From Anaerolineae bacterium (GTDB lineage Bacteria > Chloroflexota > Anaerolineae > B4-G1 > SLSP01), in NCBI GenBank assembly GCA_049974845.1, contig JBNGCP010000006.1:22386-86385 (forward strand): 64,000 nt of DNA, in the 5' to 3' direction. Below are positions 23,459-32,724 of this stretch, piece by piece (within the stretch, counting starts at the first letter, position 1; each line of letters opens with the position of its first letter). Position numbers and translations under genes: made by a program. The notes below the pieces were generated by a model. The model did no database searches, was not told the origin of the DNA, and saw only the letters and a program-made list of their open reading frames with translations.

Positions 23459-24202
23459 CTAAGGCTTGTGCGCGCGGATGAGAAAGAAGGGCAGGTGCGC
23501 GACCTGCGACCACGGCCCCGAACGAGTAGCGGCAGCACTCCGGATCTCAGCCAACCTCGACCGCTCTTCCACCGTCAGAGGCAGGTCCTCAAGGTAGTCA
23601 AAGCGCGAGAGAGCGGGCGGAAAAAGGGTATCGAAGAGCGAGATGTGCACGCTAAACCCTCGCTCCGCGAGAAGCCCGGGCAGCTTTCGACCGACATAAG
23701 GATCGGCGCCGGCACGCGTCAGCGCGCTGATCCATAGCGGACGGCTGCGGATCTCAGGTGGATGCTCGATCATCCCATCGTAGTCGGGTTCCAGCGCGAC
23801 GAAGGCCCCGCCGGGCTGCAACACGCGCCAGATCTCATCCACCGCGAGGGACAAAGGGCTGACCCACAGCAGGGTCACCTGCGAGAACACCAAATCAAAG
23901 ACCCCATCGGCGACCGGCAGCCGGGTGGCATCCGCGGCAAGCTTCGAGGTCCCCCTGGGACTCTGCCACGATCGCAGCGCCGCAAACGCAAGGTCTAATG
24001 CGACCACCCGCCCCCGCGACCGTCGTCGAAGCTCCGCAGCAACCGTACCGAACCCAGTCCCGAGGTCGAGAACGCGGTTGCGGCGAGCCACGTGGACCCG
24101 CCGCAACAAAACCGACCGAGCCGGCGCAAGCCATTCAGCCTGCTGTGCCATCAGCGCCGGCTCCGGCAGCGCAAAGCTGAGGCCGCTATTCATTCGCGCC
24201 AA
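23459..24202 (-). CDS. Class I SAM-dependent methyltransferase
   Basis: It has the SAM-binding motif I (VLDLGTGFGTV) and motif post-I (VVALDL). It is the last gene of the minus-strand rSAM cluster. Confidence 0.75.
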   Translation of the reverse strand: MARMNSGLSFALPEPALMAQQAEWLAPARSVLLRRVHVARRNRVLDLGTGFGTVAAELRRRSRGRVVALDLAFAALRSWQSPRGTSKLAADATRLPVADGVFDLVFSQVTLLWVSPLSLAVDEIWRVLQPGGAFVALEPDYDGMIEHPPEIRSRPLWISALTRAGADPYVGRKLPGLLAERGFSVHISLFDTLFPPALSRFDYLEDLPLTVEERSRLAEIRSAAATRSGPWSQVAHLPFFLIRAHKP

Positions 24203-24208
24203 CGCACG

Positions 24209-26113
24209 CTAACGTCCGCCCCCCGCGCAGGCGCAGGCACACGCACAACCGGCGCAGGCGCACGCGCAGCTGCTGCGACCACCACCACCGCTCCCGCCGC
24301 TGCTCTTTGAGGCCTTGGACATCGCCTCAAAGACGTCACCGGTGACACGATCGACGCCACTAAGGTCGACGAAACCACCCTTAGCACCGGGGATGTTCAT
24401 CGAGCCAGGCAGAACCGCCGCAGCCATGCTGCCCATCGTCGTCTCCGCCCAACCGGAAAAAGAGGCCGCGACGTCGCCGAAGGAGGTCCGCCCCCCGCCA
24501 CTGGGGCGCGCGGTCGGCGCCCCGCCGCCGGCGCCCGAGGTCACGGGTCCGCCGGTCGGGCGCGCCCACATGGGCCAGTAGTGGTAACCTCCATGCGTCA
24601 AGACCGTCGGGTAATTGTCGTTCATCATAACCCAGGGCAGATACTTATCGAGGTATTGCTCGCGTTCCCGGACCTCACCCATCTGTCTGGCTTGCTCCAT
24701 CGCCCGCGAGATCACGCGTTCGTAGTACTCCCGGGTCTGCGCGAGGTCGAACCCCTCCATCTTGGCAGCGGTGGACGTGATCAGGCCCTCCATCGCGGCG
24801 GTGAAATCAATCTTCTCCACCGGCTTGTTCGGATTGCGCTCCAACTGATCCAGGAAATCTTGCTCGTAGGCGTGAATGACCGTGCCCGCCTGTTGAGCCG
24901 CCGTTTGACGGGCATTGTGGCGCTTCTTCTTCGAGCGTCGCAGGTCGGGATCGTCCCACATCTTGAATGCATCGTTGACCTTCACGGTCAACGGATCCGG
25001 CTTCACGAGCGTCACGATGCCTTTTTCCAGCAGACCAAACATGGCCAGGGTGAGAATCTTGTGGAGCGGCAACTCCAACAGGATGGCAGCCTCAGGTGCC
25101 GTGAGCCCGCGCTTGATACCGCCACCCTCCACCTGGGCGATGGGTGGCAGATAGTCGTGGGGCTTTTTCTTCAGACGGACTTCATTGAAGATGACAAGCG
25201 CAATCAGCACCGGAATAGCTGGCAGCATCAGAATGGGCGCAGCAAAGAAGAGCAGGATCGCGCCGCCCGCGAGGATAGCAAAGACGGTGCAGCCCGTCCC
25301 GCCCGAGAACCGGAAGAAGAGCAAAGCCAGGAGGCCCACATTGATGGCCCCAAGGATGAGCCGGGCGCCGGGATTGTCGGCAAGCCACCGGTTCACCAGT
25401 TCGATCAACGTCATGCGCTCGACGCGTGTCATCACCCGCTGCGGGAAAGACACCCCGACCATGCGCGGCCCTGTGAGGCTGACATCCTCCCATTCCCAGA
25501 GGACAACGGTGTGGCCCTGGAACAAGGCCCTGTCTGTAAAGGGCTCCTGCTGATAAAGGGCTTCCTCCGGTTCCACGCCTTCAGGCAAGTGAACGGCGAT
25601 TGCAAGCTCGCTCGCACCACGAACGGATTCCTCGTCAAACCAGGTGGGCGTGATGCGGAACGAGGCAAAATCTCGGTTCGTCGTGTCCTGATAGACCATA
25701 TCCGGCATCGTGGCCTCGAAGTGGAGCGTCGCCGTCTCACCCGGTGAGATGGCCATTTCGCGCAGGTGAATCTCGACGCCGATGTCGACATACTCGGAGG
25801 TCCGAATATCGTTCAAGGTGACGCCATCGATGCTGGCTGTCATGTTGTCGATAGTGTAGTCCCTGTGCGGCAGACCAATGTCGACAATGTCGATGGGCGA
25901 TCCCTGGTTTTCGAACGTGATGTCATAGACCAACCGGGCCGAGGCATCGGGTTGGACGTAGACCTGCAATTCCATTCTCGGCACAGCGAACACGTAGCTC
26001 TGTGCGCTTGCCGGATGGATGCTCGCCCCCAGCAACACAAGCACGACAAAGAGTGACACTACCAAAGAGAGGCGTTTAGACATATCCGTGTTCACCTCCG
26101 TGCGATGCTCCAT
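24209..26113 (-). CDS. Large membrane protein A, DUF2207-like architecture, with C-terminal Gly-rich/Cys-Ala tail (…GGSGGGGRSSCACACAGCACACACAGGGR)
   Basis: It is 634 aa with a signal/TM, a ~230-aa extracytoplasmic domain, a TM cluster, a ~300-aa cytoplasmic domain (YHYWP) and a Gly-rich segment ending in a 7-Cys alternating Cys-Ala tail. It is a paralog of 26140..27915. Confidence 0.7.
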   Translation of the reverse strand: MEHRTEVNTDMSKRLSLVVSLFVVLVLLGASIHPASAQSYVFAVPRMELQVYVQPDASARLVYDITFENQGSPIDIVDIGLPHRDYTIDNMTASIDGVTLNDIRTSEYVDIGVEIHLREMAISPGETATLHFEATMPDMVYQDTTNRDFASFRITPTWFDEESVRGASELAIAVHLPEGVEPEEALYQQEPFTDRALFQGHTVVLWEWEDVSLTGPRMVGVSFPQRVMTRVERMTLIELVNRWLADNPGARLILGAINVGLLALLFFRFSGGTGCTVFAILAGGAILLFFAAPILMLPAIPVLIALVIFNEVRLKKKPHDYLPPIAQVEGGGIKRGLTAPEAAILLELPLHKILTLAMFGLLEKGIVTLVKPDPLTVKVNDAFKMWDDPDLRRSKKKRHNARQTAAQQAGTVIHAYEQDFLDQLERNPNKPVEKIDFTAAMEGLITSTAAKMEGFDLAQTREYYERVISRAMEQARQMGEVREREQYLDKYLPWVMMNDNYPTVLTHGGYHYWPMWARPTGGPVTSGAGGGAPTARPSGGGRTSFGDVAASFSGWAETTMGSMAAAVLPGSMNIPGAKGGFVDLSGVDRVTGDVFEAMSKASKSSGGSGGGGRSSCACACAGCACACACAGGGR

Positions 26114-26139
26114 CAGAACCCAACGCTATACCCCCGACC

Positions 26140-27915
26140 TCAGCGCCCGCCACCGGCACAGGCACAGGCGCAGGCGCAGCCTGCGCACGCACAGGCACAA
26201 CTGCTCCCCGAGCCTCCCCGCGAGACGGTCACACCAGTGGACGGTTTGCTGAGCGTGGTCGGCAGAATGGCAGCTGCCATCCCGCCCATCGTCGTCTCCG
26301 CCCAGCCGGCAAAGGAAGCCGACACATCACCAAAGGTGGTGGACGGTCGCCCTGATCCACCCGAGACAGCCCCTCCACCGATGCTACTTCCGGCAGTGCT
26401 CACCGTACCGCGAGCTTGTCGCGCCCACACGGGCCAGTAATGGTAACCGCCCAGCCTCAGGGCCGGCCTGTAGTTCGGCCGCATCATGACCCAAGGGAGG
26501 TACTTATCGAGATAGGCCTCACGCTGCTCGATCTCGCCAATGCTCGCAGCCTGCTCCATCGCACGATCGATCACCCGACGATAGTACTCCTGGGTATCGG
26601 AGAGATCGAAACCCTCCATCTTCGCTGCGACGCCGTCGACGAGCTTCTGCATCGGGTTGACGACGGGCAGCTCCTTGACCGGCTTGCCGGGATGGACCTC
26701 GATCAGGTCCAGGAACGGATGCTCGTACTCGTGGATCACGGTGCCCTTCTGTTGGGCCACCTGACGGCGATAGCGCTTCCGGCTCTCCGCGTCCTTTAAT
26801 TCGGGCTTGCCTTCCACCTGAAAGTCGTCGACGACCTCCAGGGTGAGAGGATCTGCATCAGTCTGGCGCACGAGTCCCTTTTCCAGCATTCCAAAGACCA
26901 CCAGCCCCAGCACCTTGGTTAGGGGCAGCTCCAGGACGATCGCGGCTTCCGGAGCCGTAAGTCCGCGCTTGATGCCGCCGCCCTCAACTTGTGCGATCGG
27001 GGGAAGATAGTTGGGTTTGAGGCCGCGGATGACGGCGCGAACGATGACGAAGATAAAGAAGGCGGGAATGGCAACGGGCAGACAGAACATAAGGATCGCC
27101 CCGATCACGGGAAGCACCCCGCCCAACCATCGTCCAAGCAAATCCCAGAAGGTGACCTCAATGACGTTGGTCATGCCACGTCGGGGGAACGAGACGCCCA
27201 CCCGATAGGCCTCCGTCAACCGGATGTCCTCGTACCGCCAGATCGCCACGACTCGCCCCTCATCGTCCAGCACCTTGTCGTCGAAAGGCTCATCCTGGTA
27301 GAGAACCTCGTCGAGCTCGATACTCGGCAGCGTCCTGACCCGAATCTCGACGTCACTCGTGCCCTGCACGAGTTCGCCGTCGAACCAGGTTGGCGTGATC
27401 TGCAGGGAAGCGTTCTCCTCGTTGGTCGTATCGGCATAGACCATCTCAGGCGAGTCAAACTCGAGATGCAGTGTCCCCGTCTCGCCCGCCGGAATAGCGT
27501 ACGGCCCTAGATGGATCTCCACGCCAACGTCGATGTATTCTGAAGGGCGGATGTCCGACACCGGATTGCCGTCGATCGTCGCCACCATCTGATCGACGTC
27601 GTAATCGGCGTTCGGCGTGCCGATATCCACAATGTCGATGGGATCTCCGGAGTTCTCGAACGTGATGTCGTAGACGATGTGGGCGGAGCCATCGGGTTGT
27701 ACAGTTGCACTCAGCAATAGCTCGGGCACGGCGAAGCGGTAAGTCTGCACGTAGGGGCGCGCCAGAACAGTGCCGGCGCCCGAGCCGAGAAGACCCAGGA
27801 GCACAGCCAAGGCCACGACCAGCGCCACAGCCCGCCTTCTGATCGTCGGGGCCACCGTCCTCTCGCGCGTGTCCACCCTTCCGTGGGAGTGTCTATGACC
27901 GGCTGGTCGGGTCAT
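26140..27915 (-). CDS. Large membrane protein B, paralog of A, with identical C-terminal tail SSCACACAGCACACACAGGGR
   Basis: The track ORF extends to 27933, but the probable start is ATG 27915..27913. That ATG overlaps the TGA of the upstream rSAM-like gene by 1 nt. It has the same domain order as protein A; the last 21 aa are identical although encoded by different codons. Confidence 0.7.
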   Translation of the reverse strand: MTRPAGHRHSHGRVDTRERTVAPTIRRRAVALVVALAVLLGLLGSGAGTVLARPYVQTYRFAVPELLLSATVQPDGSAHIVYDITFENSGDPIDIVDIGTPNADYDVDQMVATIDGNPVSDIRPSEYIDVGVEIHLGPYAIPAGETGTLHLEFDSPEMVYADTTNEENASLQITPTWFDGELVQGTSDVEIRVRTLPSIELDEVLYQDEPFDDKVLDDEGRVVAIWRYEDIRLTEAYRVGVSFPRRGMTNVIEVTFWDLLGRWLGGVLPVIGAILMFCLPVAIPAFFIFVIVRAVIRGLKPNYLPPIAQVEGGGIKRGLTAPEAAIVLELPLTKVLGLVVFGMLEKGLVRQTDADPLTLEVVDDFQVEGKPELKDAESRKRYRRQVAQQKGTVIHEYEHPFLDLIEVHPGKPVKELPVVNPMQKLVDGVAAKMEGFDLSDTQEYYRRVIDRAMEQAASIGEIEQREAYLDKYLPWVMMRPNYRPALRLGGYHYWPVWARQARGTVSTAGSSIGGGAVSGGSGRPSTTFGDVSASFAGWAETTMGGMAAAILPTTLSKPSTGVTVSRGGSGSSCACACAGCACACACAGGGR

Positions 27916-29222
27916 CACCCACCTCGGGCCCATCCTTCTGGATCACGCGGGCACGCAGCCGCGCAAATGGCAAGGCCAGGGCAGACCTCGCAGCGGGTCG
28001 GCGCCTCCACGCGCTCGCGATAGTCGCGAAAGACCGCGTCGTTCCAGATCGTGTCCCATGAGTCCCGCAGAAGGTTACCCGCACTCCGGTAGGGCCCACG
28101 GGGTGGGATGACCTCACCGGTGGGCTCGATGCGGACGGCCACGTCCCCAGAGCATCGCGGCCCCTGCAGAATCTGGTCCATCAACGACCTGTTTGGATCC
28201 CTTTCCACCGGCGGATCCCAGATGAACCGTGCGTTGGCCATATCAGCGGTCTCCTCGACGGTCGCAGCCACCTGAGCCATGCCCTCGCGGCTGAAGATAC
28301 CCTCGGCCCGCGCGAGCTGTGGATCCGTCGTCGGATAAGCGATAAAGGAGAGATTGTCAGCGCCATTCGCGATGAGCACGTCCACCGTCGCGTTGATGCG
28401 ATCGAGCGTCGCCTGGACCAAGGGGATCTCGGCCACCGCCGCGATCTGATAAGTCTCCAGCCAATCGAGCACGCTCTGTGCCATAAGGAAATCGCCCTCG
28501 CCGCAGAGGCTATCGTGAATCTCTTGGTCGGCCGCAGCATAGAGGAAGGTCACGTGGTCGACGCCGGTCTGACGAAGGTCGGGCAGGAATCCTTCCACGG
28601 CCAAGGTTGTCGCACGTCCCCTGACACCGGCGATCATGCCCAGATCTTCCGCTCGCTCCACAACCCTTAGCACATCGGTCGGCTCACAGCCGTATGGGAC
28701 GAGGATCGTCACGTGCGGGATCCCCACTTCCCAAAGGCGGTCGAGAATGGGTATAATCACCTTCGGCTCCACCAGTGGCACCGTCGCCTGCAGCGGAGCG
28801 ATGAGCTCGGCAGCATAGGGGGAGAGCGAGGCATCCTCCAGATTGAAGACCGGATACGTATCACCGGGCGCCCTAAGTCGCTCAATGAGAGCGTGCACCT
28901 TCGCGATGTCCCCGCGTACGATCTCCTCCTTGGCGCCGGAGAAGTGCGCTCTCAACCTCTCAACGATCTCGTCGGGGGTTCGGCCCTCAAGCAGGCCCTT
29001 GGCAATGACCACACCCGACGCCGTCAAACGAGCGGCAGCCATCGCGTTGGCGATCAGCATCCCGCTGCCATCCTTCTCCACCCGCAGGTGGAATCGGGCA
29101 AACGCGTCGTCGGTCTCCTGCATCACGTGATAGAGCCCGGGCTCTACGGGCGCGGTGGGTTCGGCGCGCTCAAAGGACAGCAAGCGCTTCAACCAGTCCT
29201 GGGCCATAGACGACCTCCTCAC
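27915..29222 (-). CDS. Degenerate radical-SAM/SPASM-like protein (CxxxCxxC lost, SPASM Cys cluster retained)
   Basis: It is 435 aa and aligns along its length with the 30581..32086 rSAM protein (PGLY...RV.EDGSG N-domain, IPHVTIL core). Where the paralog has YACNNACPHC it has no Cys triad. It retains the C-terminal GPRCSGD...CEVCPGLAICAAACP cluster. Confidence 0.65.
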   Translation of the reverse strand: MRRSSMAQDWLKRLLSFERAEPTAPVEPGLYHVMQETDDAFARFHLRVEKDGSGMLIANAMAAARLTASGVVIAKGLLEGRTPDEIVERLRAHFSGAKEEIVRGDIAKVHALIERLRAPGDTYPVFNLEDASLSPYAAELIAPLQATVPLVEPKVIIPILDRLWEVGIPHVTILVPYGCEPTDVLRVVERAEDLGMIAGVRGRATTLAVEGFLPDLRQTGVDHVTFLYAAADQEIHDSLCGEGDFLMAQSVLDWLETYQIAAVAEIPLVQATLDRINATVDVLIANGADNLSFIAYPTTDPQLARAEGIFSREGMAQVAATVEETADMANARFIWDPPVERDPNRSLMDQILQGPRCSGDVAVRIEPTGEVIPPRGPYRSAGNLLRDSWDTIWNDAVFRDYRERVEAPTRCEVCPGLAICAAACPRDPEGWARGG

Positions 29223-29225
29223 AAC

Positions 29226-29942
29226 CTATGCTTGTTGGGGTTGTTGGTATTTTCTTTCGAACAGATCGGGCTCGTAAGCCGCACGTCGCCCCGGACATTC
29301 CCCCCGCGGGCAGAGCTGGCAGCTCTCAAACCGCTCCTCCGTCGGGAATCGAATGCCGGAGATGGTCTTGTTTGGGATCATCAGAAAGCTCTCGGTCAGC
29401 TGCACCCCAATCGCCGCCTCGGGATCCCCGAGAATCCGGAAAAGGGGACGCTGCTGCCGGATCGGCCAATCGGCCAAGGAGCCCGGAGCCATCGTCGACG
29501 TGCGTCCCAAGGCATAGCACTCGTACAGATGGGCGTTAAGCGCCTGCGTCGCCGCCCCCAGCGCGGCCTCCTTGATCGCGTCAGCCCAGTAACGATAGAG
29601 CATATCGTCGAGGCCGTCACTCCAGGTCTGCAGTTCCGCCCCGCACGTGGCGATATAGACGAAAACCCGATGAGCCACCGCAAGGTTGACTCGCAATACG
29701 CGGCTGTGCAGCCTCACGCCGTCGACGGTCACACTCTCGTCGGACCTGTCGTCGACGTAGGCGAGCTTGTACATGGCCTTAGGCCTGGCGATCGCCGCGG
29801 CTGTCTTGAGCAGCCCGGCAAACTCGGCAAGCTGCTGGCTGCCGTCCTTGAGCCTCAGACGTTTGGCCAATGAGCCAAGGTCAGGCTGAAAAACAATGTC
29901 ATCGAGTATGTAAGGTCTCTCGCCGTTATCGATTGCGTTCAT
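29226..29942 (-). CDS. MetH activation-domain-like (AdoMet-binding) protein with C-terminal CxxCxxxxC motif
   Basis: It is 238 aa. The segment LTESFLMIPNKTISGIRF and the preceding PGSLADWP resemble the conserved core of the B12-dependent methionine synthase reactivation domain (E. coli LTESFAMWPGASVSGWYF). The C-terminus is SCQLCPRGECPG. Confidence 0.5.
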   Translation of the reverse strand: MNAIDNGERPYILDDIVFQPDLGSLAKRLRLKDGSQQLAEFAGLLKTAAAIARPKAMYKLAYVDDRSDESVTVDGVRLHSRVLRVNLAVAHRVFVYIATCGAELQTWSDGLDDMLYRYWADAIKEAALGAATQALNAHLYECYALGRTSTMAPGSLADWPIRQQRPLFRILGDPEAAIGVQLTESFLMIPNKTISGIRFPTEERFESCQLCPRGECPGRRAAYEPDLFERKYQQPQQA

Positions 29943-29986
29943 TGTTGTCTGCTATGGTTCCGTTCTGTGCGTGAAAGGTTCTCGGG

Positions 29987-30523
29987 TCACGATCGGTGGG
30001 CCACCAACAGCCCTCGAATCAGGGCCAACAGCCCCAGGCCGATGAAGAGGATCGGCCACCCGATGAAGTCCAGGCCAAGACCGCTGATATTCAGGATCAG
30101 TTCAAAGAAGACCAGGCCCACGAGAAACATGATCAGCCCGATGTTCACCAGGGTCGAACCGGTCCGTATGGCGCTCTCCCTACGCTTGCTCCAACCATAG
30201 AGCATCTCTGCCAAGCCTATACCAGTTGGGGTGATCAGCGCCCACACGTAGGCCCAACTGGTCCAGTGCCCTGTGACACTTTGATAGAGCAGCACCAATC
30301 CTACCATCGTGACAATCCCGCTCAACATTGCGAAAGGCTCACTCAAGGGCGTATCGGCGGCAAGGGCGAAGAGGAAGATCAAGACGCCGGGCAGAATGAC
30401 AAAGAAGGGCCACAGGAAAGCGCCGATGTTGAGCTGCAAAAACTGCCCGACCAGGGCCAGGACCCCCAGGACGATCAGAGCAATACCGAGTGCCCGAACA
30501 AACGCTCTTGGTCCCTCAAACAT
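29987..30523 (-). CDS. Integral membrane protein (5-6 TM), unknown function
   Basis: It is a 178-aa, very hydrophobic protein inside the rSAM cluster. Confidence 0.55.
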   Translation of the reverse strand: MFEGPRAFVRALGIALIVLGVLALVGQFLQLNIGAFLWPFFVILPGVLIFLFALAADTPLSEPFAMLSGIVTMVGLVLLYQSVTGHWTSWAYVWALITPTGIGLAEMLYGWSKRRESAIRTGSTLVNIGLIMFLVGLVFFELILNISGLGLDFIGWPILFIGLGLLALIRGLLVAHRS

Positions 30524-30580
30524 GCCTTTCCTCCTGCGTGATTTGGAAACCCGGCATCCAAAGCGCCCCGCGAACCTGCC

Positions 30581-32086
30581 CTAGCGTCGCGTCCCCGTCA
30601 GGACGCCCTCCTGTGTCGCAGATCGATCGTCGGTGAATGACACGACGCGGCCCGACCCCCGTCGGGTAGGGCGAGAACACCCGCGCTCAGCCGCCCGAAT
30701 CCCGGCCCGCGCTTCTCGCTCCAACCGGCATCCCCCCCCGCACATCTCCAGGTCCGGACAATCCCAGCAGGCCTCCGGCAACCCCGCGGCTTGCGGGTCC
30801 TCCTCACGATTTCGGAAGCTGAGGAAGAGCTCGCTATTCCATATACTCTCCCACGGATCGGCAAGGATGTTGCCTGCGGTGACGTAGTAAGACTGACAAG
30901 GGAGGACGACGCCGTTGGGCTCGATGCAGATCGAGTATTCGGCTGCATTGCAGCGCTTGGGCGGCAGGCCCAGCGCCACCGGGGACAAGCGGCAGTAGTC
31001 GGTCACCGTGTACCAGAGGAACCGCATGTTGAGCCGCTCGGCCTCGTCCCTCACCGCAGCGAGCAGGGCCGCCATGTCCTCAGCCGGAATGGCAGCGGGC
31101 GTACTCGTCCCTCCTCCGGCATGGATAATACCGTTCATCGCGAAGGTCTGTAGACCTAACTCATGGAGAAACCTGACGGTATCGAGGACGTGATCCTGAT
31201 TTTGCCGGGTAACGGTCGTATTGGTGATGGTGTGTATGCCGGCGTCCAGCGCGCTCTGAATCCCCGCAACCGTCTCTTCGAAAGCGCCCTCCACACCCAC
31301 CATCTCATCATGGACGGAGCGGTAGCACGACTCCAGCGTGATCTGCACGTGGTTGAGCCCTGCTGCTGCCAGCGAGGTCGTCAACACTCGATCCGCGAGG
31401 CGACGTCCGTTGCTGTTCATGCCGACGATCAGACCGAGTCCGTCGGCATACCGAACCAACTGCGCCAGGGCGGGATGGAGTGTCGGCTCACCGCCGGTCA
31501 GGATGACGTGAGGAATGCCGATGTCCAGGATCCGATCGAAGACCCGCATCCAGTCGCGCGTGGTGAGCGAAGCCATCGCGAACCGTTCCTGCTCGTTATA
31601 GCAATGTGGGCAGGCATTGTTGCAGGCATAGGTGAGCGCGACGTCCACCTTATAGGGCGCCGTGACGGGCGTGCTGAAGATCGGCTGAAAATCCACAAGC
31701 GGCCCTAGGGCGCACGTCGGACAGATATTGTCGGTCTCTCGCAAACGCCGAACCATATCATACATCGTGGCGACCGCCTCCGAGAGCTCTCCTTTCGTGA
31801 CACCGCGGTACCGACGAATCATCCGGTCTCGCGCCTCGGCCTGCGGGACGTCGTCCAGCGCTAGCTTGACCATCTCGACGGCAGTCGCATTAAGATGGAT
31901 CACGTCGGTGACGTCGATAAAGAGCACGCCCGAGCCATCCTCGTTGACGCGTAGATGCACGCGGCGCTGCCCCCCGTCCAAGACCAAGGGATAGCTGTAG
32001 AGGCCGGGAGCCATTGCCACCGACCCAGGCTGCAACAGAGCCCGGACGGTAGTCATCAGACGATGCCACTCCGACGATAGATTCAT
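30581..32086 (-). CDS. Radical SAM/SPASM-domain maturase with N-terminal extension
   Basis: It has the canonical CxxxCxxC (YACNNACPHCYNE), a GGEPTL SAM-binding motif and a C-terminal SPASM region (CQSYY...CWDCPDLEMCGGGC). The ~120-aa N-terminal domain is shared with the degenerate paralog. Confidence 0.85.
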   Translation of the reverse strand: MNLSSEWHRLMTTVRALLQPGSVAMAPGLYSYPLVLDGGQRRVHLRVNEDGSGVLFIDVTDVIHLNATAVEMVKLALDDVPQAEARDRMIRRYRGVTKGELSEAVATMYDMVRRLRETDNICPTCALGPLVDFQPIFSTPVTAPYKVDVALTYACNNACPHCYNEQERFAMASLTTRDWMRVFDRILDIGIPHVILTGGEPTLHPALAQLVRYADGLGLIVGMNSNGRRLADRVLTTSLAAAGLNHVQITLESCYRSVHDEMVGVEGAFEETVAGIQSALDAGIHTITNTTVTRQNQDHVLDTVRFLHELGLQTFAMNGIIHAGGGTSTPAAIPAEDMAALLAAVRDEAERLNMRFLWYTVTDYCRLSPVALGLPPKRCNAAEYSICIEPNGVVLPCQSYYVTAGNILADPWESIWNSELFLSFRNREEDPQAAGLPEACWDCPDLEMCGGGCRLEREARAGIRAAERGCSRPTRRGSGRVVSFTDDRSATQEGVLTGTRR

Positions 32087-32316
32087 AATTCTCTATGTAT
32101 GTTTACGTACAAAGCGGCGCCGGGTTGCAGCTCGGCCTTGACACAGAGCACCCCCGAGCCGTAACCGAGGCTGCGCCAACCTTCCCCCCAGCGATGTCCC
32201 CGACGTCTAAGTCGGCATTAACGGACTGATCCACCTGTTGAACGCGAGAGAAAAACGGAGGAGATGGGGGTCACCGCGTTGGCAGGAGCGCGACAGAAAG
32301 AGCACGAGCGCAGCGT

Positions 32317-32724
32317 TCACCACTTTGGGGCTTCTTCGATCTGGTAAGAGGCCCCACAGTACGGACACTCGACGAAAATGGCGCCCGCCTTGACCTCAAG
32401 GTTGCCCTTGCTCAGGGCGCCGCCACAGGACCGACACTTCAGCTGCTCTAGCTGAACATCGCCCGACAGGTCGATCTTCTGTACGTGGGTGTGTTCCTCA
32501 TGTTTGGGGCGAACGCGCGTCAGATAGATGAGCACGCCGGCCGCAGCGAAAAGGATCAGACCGACGACGATGCGTATAACCTGTCCCTGCGATCCCACCA
32601 CAAACATAAACCCGAAAAAGGCCACCACCGCGGCAATCAGGTAGGTCAAGAGCTCCATCGCGTTCTCCTCCACAGGCGTTTTGGGTTGCAGCAGGTAGTA
32701 TAGTCGATCCGCCATGCTCGTCAA
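32317..32724 (-). CDS. Small membrane protein with C-terminal zinc-ribbon (CxxC-x15-CxxC)
   Basis: It is 135 aa with two TM helices and then CRSCGG...CPYCG. It is the first gene of the minus-strand cluster; its start may be the internal Met (MELLTYL). Confidence 0.55.
   Translation of the reverse strand: MTSMADRLYYLLQPKTPVEENAMELLTYLIAAVVAFFGFMFVVGSQGQVIRIVVGLILFAAAGVLIYLTRVRPKHEEHTHVQKIDLSGDVQLEQLKCRSCGGALSKGNLEVKAGAIFVECPYCGASYQIEEAPKW

Follow-up and report, generated by a model that had tools for sequence, protein, structure and literature searches.

Which molecule does a radical S-adenosylmethionine (SAM)/SPASM enzyme modify when its neighbors are not a small precursor peptide but two large membrane proteins ending in the same Cys-Ala tail? 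Most of what is known of radical SAM (rSAM)/SPASM enzymes concerns their part in making small peptide natural products. The question is raised by a locus of an Anaerolineae bacterium (GenBank assembly GCA_049974845.1, contig JBNGCP010000006.1, positions 22,386 to 86,385 of the forward strand); this whole stretch of 64,000 nucleotides (nt) is referred to here as the window, and all coordinates are its own. Eight minus-strand open reading frames (ORFs) lie head to tail between 23459 and 32724, as read from the ORF list and its translations. An earlier note, made from the sequence alone, had described this operon-like run, and every one of its ORFs was recovered. On balance, we favor the view that the locus encodes a system whose dedicated task is to mature, after translation, the tail at the C terminus of a membrane protein. 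The predicted maturase carries a domain resembling the recognition element (RRE) of pathways for peptides that are made on ribosomes and then modified post-translationally (RiPPs). The enzyme, the two tail proteins, and their relevant parts are as follows.

30581..32086, minus strand: P0007, RRE-radical SAM-SPASM enzyme of 501 residues, the predicted maturase
31736..32005, minus strand: predicted RRE (PqqD-like) domain of P0007, residues 28-117, from a profile match and a model
31601..31624, minus strand: CNNACPHC, the CxxxCxxC [4Fe-4S] motif of P0007, invariant in orthologs
30728..30994, minus strand: SPASM region of P0007 with seven invariant cysteines (C365, C379, C397, C440, C443, C449, and C453)
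26140..27933, minus strand: P0003, tail protein B; alternative and likely start GTG 27828 (562 residues)
27025-27150, minus strand: transmembrane (TM) segment of tail protein B, between the ectodomain and the juxtamembrane motif
26941-27009, minus strand: juxtamembrane motif YLPPIAQVEGGGIKRGLTAPEAA of tail protein B, predicted cytoplasmic, near-invariant in the long-form family
26266..26334, minus strand: leader-like segment FGDVSASFAGWAETTMGGMAAAI of tail protein B, residues 534-556, with conserved columns and a predicted helix
26143..26199, minus strand: core tail CACACAGCACACACAGGGR of tail protein B, from residue 579, read from the translation
24209..26113, minus strand: P0002, tail protein A, paralog of B; likely start ATG 26083
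24413-24481, minus strand: leader-like segment of tail protein A, counterpart of FGDVSASFAGWAETTMGGMAAAI
24212..24268, minus strand: core tail CACACAGCACACACAGGGR of tail protein A, read from the translation

Selection acts strictly on the tail at the protein level. CACACAGCACACACAGGGR closes both large proteins, as had been noticed at the outset; its two copies differ at synonymous positions, and the tail is restricted to these two ORFs in the 4.3-Mb genome. A homolog search of 5.8 billion proteins retrieved more than 1,000 relatives, all unnamed or annotated as "hypothetical." Nearly all of the 120 relatives listed share the C-terminal 17 to 19 residues despite an overall identity of 47 to 80%, and about 110 homologs, some as low as 47% in identity, show no change in the tail. 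The peptide is retained by 86 tails drawn from the window and related loci in many phyla. Tails with identical peptides never have the same DNA, and all copies of the commonest peptide (44/44) differ in their DNA; every synonymous Cys, Ala, and Gly codon and all six Arg codons occur. A profile search of 1.84 billion representatives yielded 934 clusters (324 at an E value of 1e-30 or better). Among the best 150 of the 934, no protein with an intact C terminus lacks a variant of (CA)n-[G/S/VS]-(CA)m-GGGR. The core can thus be written as (Cys-Ala)2-5-Gly-(Cys-Ala)3-4-Gly-Gly-Gly-Arg. Its cysteines in the window proteins are spaced CxCxCxxCxCxCxC, its last (CA)2-3 and GGGR never change, and at least ten lineages of phylum rank retain it.

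The tail protein and the enzyme also occur together. A scan of species-representative genomes returned 80 related loci, of which 78 had an intact tail gene by ORF-level mapping; these span Chloroflexota, Planctomycetota, Armatimonadota, Myxococcota, Acidobacteriota, Zixibacteria, Fermentibacteria, Hydrogenedentes, and other phyla. No more than 6 kb from the tail gene, a CxxxCxxC-containing rSAM ortholog was found in 63/78 loci, a gene for a Zn-ribbon membrane protein in 67/78, a paralog of the enzyme that lacks the Cys motif in 47/78, and a methyltransferase gene in 42/78. At 14 loci the rSAM gene was not in the stretch, at least seven of these being cut by a contig end, and all five genomes with unlinked tail genes that were tested (5/5) hold the enzyme elsewhere, with scores of 368 to 541 bits. 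In the sample of 401 Chloroflexota genomes, the 28 that have a tail protein are also the 28 in which an rSAM match reaches 344 bits or more, the two lying side by side on one contig, and the other 373 have neither the tail protein nor a high-scoring rSAM match; the patchy distribution within genera is identical for the two proteins. Among 251 Planctomycetota genomes, the same 3 hold both genes, the best rSAM match elsewhere scoring 186 bits. The sampled genomes are related to one another, so these counts are of non-independent events.

The earlier note had named two findings that would speak against a link between tail and enzyme, and neither was seen. The first was a tail that occurs widely without the rSAM genes: in the two phylum samples and the five genomes with unlinked genes, there was no case of a tail without the enzyme or of the enzyme without a tail. 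The second was linkage of the enzyme to a different, small precursor. No plausible small Cys-rich precursor ORF was found in the 230-nt gap upstream of the rSAM gene or in the rest of the cassette, and the tail protein is the sole Cys-rich partner that is conserved from phylum to phylum and in a second deep family as well. RRE-dependent RiPP maturases act on small precursors; here, the Cys-rich core sits on proteins of 560 to 640 residues. Stand-alone short tail peptides were considered and set aside, as they proved to be contig-end or miscalled fragments of the tail family, plus members of a short family described below. We regard it as very likely that the enzyme and the tail protein work together.

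Two further observations concern the enzyme's relatives. A Chloroflexota genome that has no tail protein holds a distant paralog of the enzyme (G314:C10:20770-21987; 190 bits, 33% identity), and nine Planctomycetota genomes give rSAM matches of 160 to 186 bits; these paralogs of 160 to 190 bits may form a sister family with another substrate. Separately, two proteins from Logan contigs (P0327 and P0346) have an rSAM core joined in frame to the middle of a tail protein, with SPASM and the membrane protein's first half both gone. They look like in-frame deletions across adjacent genes, not designed fusions.

The assignment of P0007 begins with its Pfam matches, to Radical_SAM (PF04055; E value of 4.8e-25) and SPASM (PF13186; E value of 6.4e-10, 39.6 bits against a cutoff of 21.5). 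It has the CxxxCxxC motif and core fold of the radical SAM superfamily, which its paralog P0004 does not, and the cysteines of a SPASM domain, C440-x2-C443-x5-C449-x3-C453 included; in the SPASM subfamily (PF13186/TIGR04085), about seven cysteines serve two auxiliary [4Fe-4S] clusters. C155, C159, and C162 and the seven SPASM cysteines are invariant among 30 orthologs (alignment A3). When the profile of these orthologs was compared with solved structures, the best matches were SkfB (111 bits), PqqE (100 bits), SuiB (72 bits), and CteB (41 bits). Residues 50-118 of the profile matched the lasso peptide RRE TfuB1 (6jx3_B) with an E value of 1e-4. In the AlphaFold2 model of P0007 (mean predicted local distance difference test score [pLDDT] of 85, predicted template modeling score of 0.83), strands at residues 28-65 and three helices at residues 67-117 precede the barrel, with a pLDDT of 78 to 95. 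The top fold matches of the model are SkfB, SuiB, and CteB, aligned at full length over 410 to 470 columns. Together, the TfuB1 match, the model, and the alignment to these three enzymes support the reading of the N-terminal domain as a putative RRE, with a PqqD-like sheet and three helices; the earlier note had suggested that this domain, shared by both rSAM proteins, could be a recognition element.

P0007 reached no family cutoff among the best 25 of its 58 NCBIfam matches. Its scores against the respective cutoffs were 79.6/300 for SkfB, 91/625 for StsB, 79/850 for AlbA, and 119/381 for PqqE, and it fell below every cutoff of the curated sactipeptide and ranthipeptide maturases (StsB, AlbA, SkfB, PapB, and CteB-like). 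TIGR04463, the family of CrpC, was absent from the same best 25 of 58. Judged by its profile matches and its model, P0007 is predicted to be an RRE-rSAM-SPASM peptide maturase of an uncurated family. A complex prediction for residues 1-470 of the enzyme with residues 525-597 of the tail protein gave a score of 0.01, which weighs neither way on binding. Selenocysteine, considered for in-frame stops in some rSAM matches, was rejected, as those matches overrun the true stop codon of the ORF.

Tail proteins A and B are 51% identical over 545 residues, the TM region of A being longer. From the N terminus, tail protein B consists of a signal or anchor, an extracytoplasmic beta-sandwich, the TM segment, YLPPIAQVEGGGIKRGLTAPEAA, a helical domain, a disordered Gly/Ser linker, and the tail. 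Its model has an N-terminal hydrophobic helix, a confident beta-sandwich at residues 67-250, a long TM helix at residues 262-303, and a helical, winged-helix-like domain to about residue 480. In a fold search, the beta-sandwich resembled ribophorin I and the N-domains of M1 aminopeptidases. The remaining C terminus is predicted to be disordered except for a single helix at residues 534-556. This helix coincides with FGDVSASFAGWAETTMGGMAAAI (FGDVxxSFxGWAExTMGxMAxA..P): it accounts for 12 of the invariant columns of alignment A2, of which 11 lie inside the segment and one, P558, just after it. The segment ends about 22 residues ahead of the core, and a related segment, PGxDFAAS..., occupies the same place in the tail proteins of the second cassette type described below, so it is kept in both types. 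A conserved segment, a variable Gly/Ser linker, and an invariant core thus follow one another in the order of recognition sequence, linker, and core known from RiPP precursors, which gives the C terminus of the tail protein a precursor-like layout. We propose that FGDVSASFAGWAETTMGGMAAAI may be the recognition sequence. The juxtamembrane motif YLPPIAQVEGGGIKRGLTAPEAA, also present in P0002, is the most conserved part of the long-form proteins after the tail. The distribution of charges, together with an odd count of TM segments beyond the ectodomain, suggests that the C-terminal half is cytoplasmic and thus within reach of the rSAM enzyme; the tail would then share this cytoplasmic topology.

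The earlier note had called the tail proteins DUF2207-like. P0002 and P0003 gave no Pfam match to DUF2207 (PF09972) at an E value of 0.01 or better, and the link is remote: subthreshold matches were found in 7/24 members of the short family (best E value of 7.6e-5), and the Atlas lists DUF2207 clusters as feature neighbors. A remote relationship is plausible from these matches. DUF2207 proteins (PF09972/PF20990) resemble the tail proteins in having an ectodomain, a TM segment, a cytoplasmic domain, and a Gly-rich C terminus, whereas a Cys-Ala tail and an obligate rSAM partner are not among their known features. Two odd sequences were seen in this family. P0193, a protein of 109 residues on an 866-nt ENA contig, joins a nucleoside-diphosphate-kinase N terminus to a linker and Cys-Ala tail like those of the second cassette type and is probably an assembly or frameshift chimera. 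Two loci of that type (L025:16007- and L041:12873-, minus strand) have an extra ORF of about 290 residues that is like the N-terminal part of a tail protein, lacks the Cys-Ala tail, and adjoins a further rSAM-like gene on the opposite strand.

A search with the tail region only retrieved a second protein family, which reduces the system to two genes. P0209, of 308 residues, has an N-terminal anchor, a beta-sandwich, one TM segment, and then ...CACACAGCACACACAGGGRAGCSKKDFF... This short family (about 310 residues) has at least 2,505 relatives at 90% clustering, and its gene neighborhoods were taken from eight loci. Its motif, ...CACACACAGGGRAGCSxKDFY, is internal, with an extension beyond it; CACACACAGGGRAGC-x-x-K-D-F/Y followed by a variable extension is kept in all 118 listed relatives with an intact C terminus. 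The ectodomains of the short family and of the window proteins are homologous (hhalign probability of 99.3%, E value of 4.6e-20). The short-family gene abuts or overlaps an rSAM/SPASM gene in 8/8 loci, in either order, and the other neighbors differ. These enzymes are orthologous to residues 28-437 of P0007, N-terminal domain included (hhalign E value of 1.6e-77). Neither a Zn-ribbon gene nor a second rSAM-type gene lies beside the pair at any of the eight loci, and the sole methyltransferase gene (at L091) is about 4 kb away. With no other partner at these loci, the irreducible module is the enzyme and the tail protein. The presence of SpoIVA and SipL at one locus points to Clostridia; the contexts are Clostridia-like and come from animal-associated metagenomes, and the two-gene form appears to be common in Clostridia-like bacteria of such metagenomes.

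The remaining features of the run in the window are as follows.

32317..32724, minus strand: P0008, Zn-ribbon membrane protein; likely true start ATG 32658 (113 residues)
32697..32724, minus strand: sigma-70-like promoter match, TTGACG/16-nt spacer/TATACT, about 40 nt upstream of the likely Zn-ribbon start
29987..30523, minus strand: P0006, polytopic membrane protein of 178 residues, no family match
29226..29942, minus strand: P0005, MetH-activation-domain-like protein of 238 residues with a C-terminal Cys motif, subthreshold Met_synt_B12 match
27915..29222, minus strand: P0004, pseudo-rSAM paralog of 435 residues, by paralogy to P0007
28866-29138, minus strand: RRE-like domain of P0004, retained in the pseudo-rSAM
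27951-27992, minus strand: CX2CX5CX3C remnant of P0004, partial SPASM cysteines
23459..24202, minus strand: P0001, class I SAM-dependent methyltransferase (Methyltransf_11)

Intergenic distances range from -19 to 57 nt, with the exception of the 230 nt that separate the rSAM gene from the Zn-ribbon gene. The true starts of the Zn-ribbon, tail A, and tail B genes are likely to make them shorter than the longest ORFs. The promoter candidate agrees with the consensus at 10 of 12 positions; the region has 5 such sites against 2.5 expected by chance, so it is a weak candidate, a match to the consensus and no more. An Rfam scan of the cassette gave no match, and PADLOC found generic rSAM and methyltransferase similarity only. 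The flanking genes are unrelated (DUF1385, a carbon monoxide dehydrogenase-type flavoprotein, a major facilitator superfamily transporter, and fragments of a phosphoenolpyruvate-utilizing enzyme).

Compared across loci, the conserved cassette consists of a Zn-ribbon membrane protein, a tail protein, and an rSAM enzyme, with or without a dead rSAM paralog and a methyltransferase. In type 1, the order is Zn-ribbon, rSAM, (MetH-like), pseudo-rSAM, tail protein(s), and methyltransferase, and the tail is (CA)2-3-G-(CA)4-GGGR; this type is found in the window, Planctomycetota, Armatimonadota, and others. In type 2, the order is Zn-ribbon, tail protein, rSAM, (pseudo-rSAM), and methyltransferase, with a tail of (CA)3-5-G-(CA)3-GGGR; most Anaerolineae have it, among them the cultured Ornatilinea apprima and Leptolinea sp. 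HRD-7, as do Acidobacteriota and others. The eight genes had been taken as one unit, which does not hold: P0005 occurs in the two closest relatives only and P0006 in none, so the conserved system has five genes and these two are lineage specific. P0005 matches Met_synt_B12 with 23.8 bits against a cutoff of 25 and was found among the related loci only in L001 and L002. P0006 matches no family, and tblastn gave no counterpart at any of the 80 related loci, the closest two included; either it was inserted recently or it is no real gene. As for the gene identities first proposed, those of the rSAM/SPASM enzyme, its dead paralog, and the methyltransferase stand, the MetH-like match falls below the Pfam threshold, and the DUF2207-like assignment has no Pfam match in the window proteins.

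P0004 is 27% identical to P0007 (E value of 1e-36) and lacks CxxxCxxC. In the alignment of its orthologs (A7), no cysteine is invariant, and the RRE motif R-LHLRV-DG-G is conserved; the pseudo-rSAM proteins of type 2 have no cysteine motif at all and keep the N-terminal domain. P0001 matches Methyltransf_11 with an E value of 2e-18, and its nearest NCBIfam model, the DVU_1556 family, lies well below the cutoff. Methylation of the C-terminal carboxyl group, examined through a correlation between the methyltransferase and the GGGR end, was rejected: loci without a methyltransferase gene within 6 kb also end in GGGR. P0008 has two TM helices followed by a cytoplasmic CxxC...CxxC ribbon (32356-32436). 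Its C terminus, E-x-P-K-W, is invariant in 17/17 aligned orthologs (alignment A5) and could be a second substrate. A conserved C-terminal Lys-Trp beside an rSAM/SPASM gene recalls the Lys-Trp crosslink of streptide. The Atlas also holds an archaeal cluster that fuses a Zn-ribbon domain to a similar fold, a lead and not a test.

From these data, the following mechanism is proposed. The RRE of the cytoplasmic rSAM/SPASM enzyme would bind the tail protein, probably at the FGDVxxSFxGW... segment upstream of the linker, and 5'-deoxyadenosyl radical chemistry would then act on the Cys-Ala core. We judge it rather likely that the Cys-Ala tail is the enzyme's substrate. The likeliest products would be intramolecular thioethers of the sactionine or ranthionine type, joining Cys sulfur to Ala or Gly carbons; with Cys, Ala, Gly, and the terminal Arg as the only residues of the core, an intramolecular thioether could form only at Ala or Gly carbons. 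We put a thioether product forward tentatively, at somewhat below an even chance. The variable first block of repeats and the unfixed separator fit modification between neighboring residues better than a strict hairpin ladder. The dead paralog, with its retained RRE, is probably a noncatalytic partner that holds or presents the substrate, and the methyltransferase may add a further modification in the lineages that have the gene; the Zn-ribbon membrane protein would be a constant partner in the long-form cassettes. The product would remain on the membrane protein as a rigid, sulfur-rich cytoplasmic module. Where the enzyme docks, which chemistry it uses, and what the pseudo-enzyme and the methyltransferase contribute are inferred here. 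An extension of this proposal, which we hold to be doubtful, is that the poly(Cys-Ala) tail is turned into a new protein-tethered, metal- or redox-active cofactor on the cytoplasmic face of DUF2207-like proteins. It might take the form of a ladder in which thioether rings join adjacent residues at Ala or Gly carbons, or of an alternating D/L sulfur-rich element.

Several observations weigh against the proposed maturation of the tail, or against parts of it. Co-occurrence is a functional link, not proof that one protein is the substrate of the other. The Pfam PqqD model scores the enzyme N terminus at 19.6 to 22.9 bits, below its threshold of 23.4. The short-family enzymes (L087-L096, alignment A6) lack the CX2CX5CX3C half of SPASM and probably have room for a single auxiliary cluster. 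Many loci have no methyltransferase or no pseudo-rSAM, which makes these two inessential to the core reaction. The first block has anywhere from 2 to 5 repeats, and Ser or Val-Ser can stand in for the Gly separator; this variability argues against a fixed cross-strand ladder and keeps epimerization and other radical chemistry among the candidates. Finally, CxC repeats are classic metal-thiolate ligands, and the tail could act unmodified.

This last point leads to the strongest rival, which we consider unlikely: that the tail is an unmodified metal- or iron-sulfur-binding module and the rSAM enzyme acts on another target, such as the Zn-ribbon protein or a small molecule, with the tail protein serving the enzyme as membrane anchor, regulator, or electron or metal donor. 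The CxCxC spacing is typical of metal-thiolate clusters, and metal binding could tolerate a variable number of Cys-Ala repeats; the invariant E-x-PKW of the Zn-ribbon partner, together with SuiB, which makes a Lys-Trp crosslink, among the top structural matches, offers a candidate for the other target. However, metal-binding CxC motifs are normally free to vary at X, whereas the Ala residues of the tail stay the same from phylum to phylum although synonymous change is saturated. The two-gene modules of the short family have no Zn-ribbon gene, so the Zn-ribbon protein is not a universal substrate. Moreover, the enzyme has a putative peptide-binding RRE, and the tail region is laid out as leader, linker, and core.

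A second rival, quite improbable in our view, treats the large protein as a long RiPP or cofactor precursor from which the modified tail is excised as a small, highly conserved sulfur-rich product, as PQQ is from PqqA and mycofactocin from MftA. The resemblance of the enzyme to PqqE and MftC, the position of the core at the extreme C terminus behind a flexible linker, and its phylum-spanning invariance, typical of cofactor-type RiPPs, would all suit this explanation. Yet the cassette has no conserved protease, transporter, or cofactor-using enzyme, the short-family modules consist of two genes only, and a carrier of 300 to 640 residues with selected extracytoplasmic and cytoplasmic domains would be odd as a disposable leader. 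In the short family, furthermore, the motif is internal and the conserved AGCSxKDFY extension follows it. The idea that the tail is a meaningless low-complexity end or a GC-rich repeat artifact with a coincidental rSAM neighbor, suggested by the 62% G+C content of the window and by TGC/GCC codons that make a simple-looking repeat, is refuted by 44/44 identical peptides encoded by different DNA, by the restriction of the motif to two ORFs in the genome, and by the co-occurrence of tail and enzyme across both phylum samples and again in the second family.

The favored reading, maturation of a tail that stays on its protein, has partial precedents. The sactipeptide and ranthipeptide maturases (SkfB, AlbA, CteB, and PapB) share the RRE-rSAM-SPASM architecture and a Cys-rich C-terminal core behind a recognition segment and linker; SkfB is the best sequence and fold match of P0007, and CteB also matches. 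In those systems, the carrier is a peptide of fewer than 100 residues, whereas here it is a membrane protein of 560 to 640 or about 310 residues; the core here lacks the usual acceptor residues and is invariant across phyla, and there is no linked protease or exporter. PqqE/PqqD and MftC/MftB likewise combine an rSAM-SPASM enzyme with a PqqD-type RRE and a strongly conserved core, PqqE being the second-best solved match, but their precursors are small and excised and their pathways have many further genes. The haloarchaeal pair of a TIGR04347 pseudo-SAM/SPASM and a TIGR04053 rSAM/SPASM protein also joins an active enzyme to a degenerate paralog; the respective scores lie far under the cutoffs (113 versus 525 and 105 versus 395 bits), and partners and taxa differ.

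Closer to the present case, the rSAM-SPASM enzyme CrpC installs thioethers on the full-length protein CrpA in Methanococcus voltae (PMC13692751). Both systems pair an RRE-rSAM-SPASM enzyme with a neighboring full-length Cys-rich protein (PMC13692751), and the paralogous nonsubstrate partner CrpB may assist CrpC (PMC13692751), as the pseudo-rSAM might here. In contrast to the tail proteins, CrpA is soluble and has ten 17-residue repeats with C-x-x-Q/D in place of a single Cys-Ala tail on a membrane protein; CrpC belongs to TIGR04463, whereas P0007 reaches no curated cutoff among the matches shown; and the Crp helper is a paralog of the substrate, not a dead paralog of the enzyme. QhpD, another rSAM-SPASM enzyme, makes Cys thioethers in a lasting functional subunit, the gamma subunit of quinohemoprotein amine dehydrogenase (QHNDH) (PMC13692751). 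There, the modified protein stays a functional subunit, as proposed here; the acceptors are Asp and Glu and the target is a small soluble subunit of a known enzyme, in contrast to a membrane-anchored putative substrate.

Neither the tail proteins nor the motif are described in Pfam, NCBIfam release 20, PADLOC, or the searchable literature. A literature search with the exact motif returned DNA primers only, and topic searches gave the Crp paper as the sole relevant precedent (subscription journals lay outside the coverage of both). The earlier note had not recognized the architecture as a described RiPP or post-translational modification family; consistent with this, Pfam, NCBIfam, and the searchable literature are silent on the system, apparently a widespread one for modifying protein tails that had gone undescribed. 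The logic of the enzyme has known parallels, but these do not extend to the substrate class, the core sequence, or that core's invariance and breadth.

Whole-protein examples of rSAM/SPASM chemistry are few (QHNDH and, in 2026, the Crp system), and in the present case that enzyme logic is linked to a membrane protein's tail in a system of thousands of sequence clusters. With a core of only Cys, Ala, and Gly ahead of its terminal Arg, any crosslink would use acceptors unusual for this chemistry. If the cofactor proposal is true, the tail would represent a new class of protein-derived cofactor, distributed from Chloroflexota to Clostridia-like bacteria, and the system would provide a first functional handle on DUF2207-like membrane proteins.

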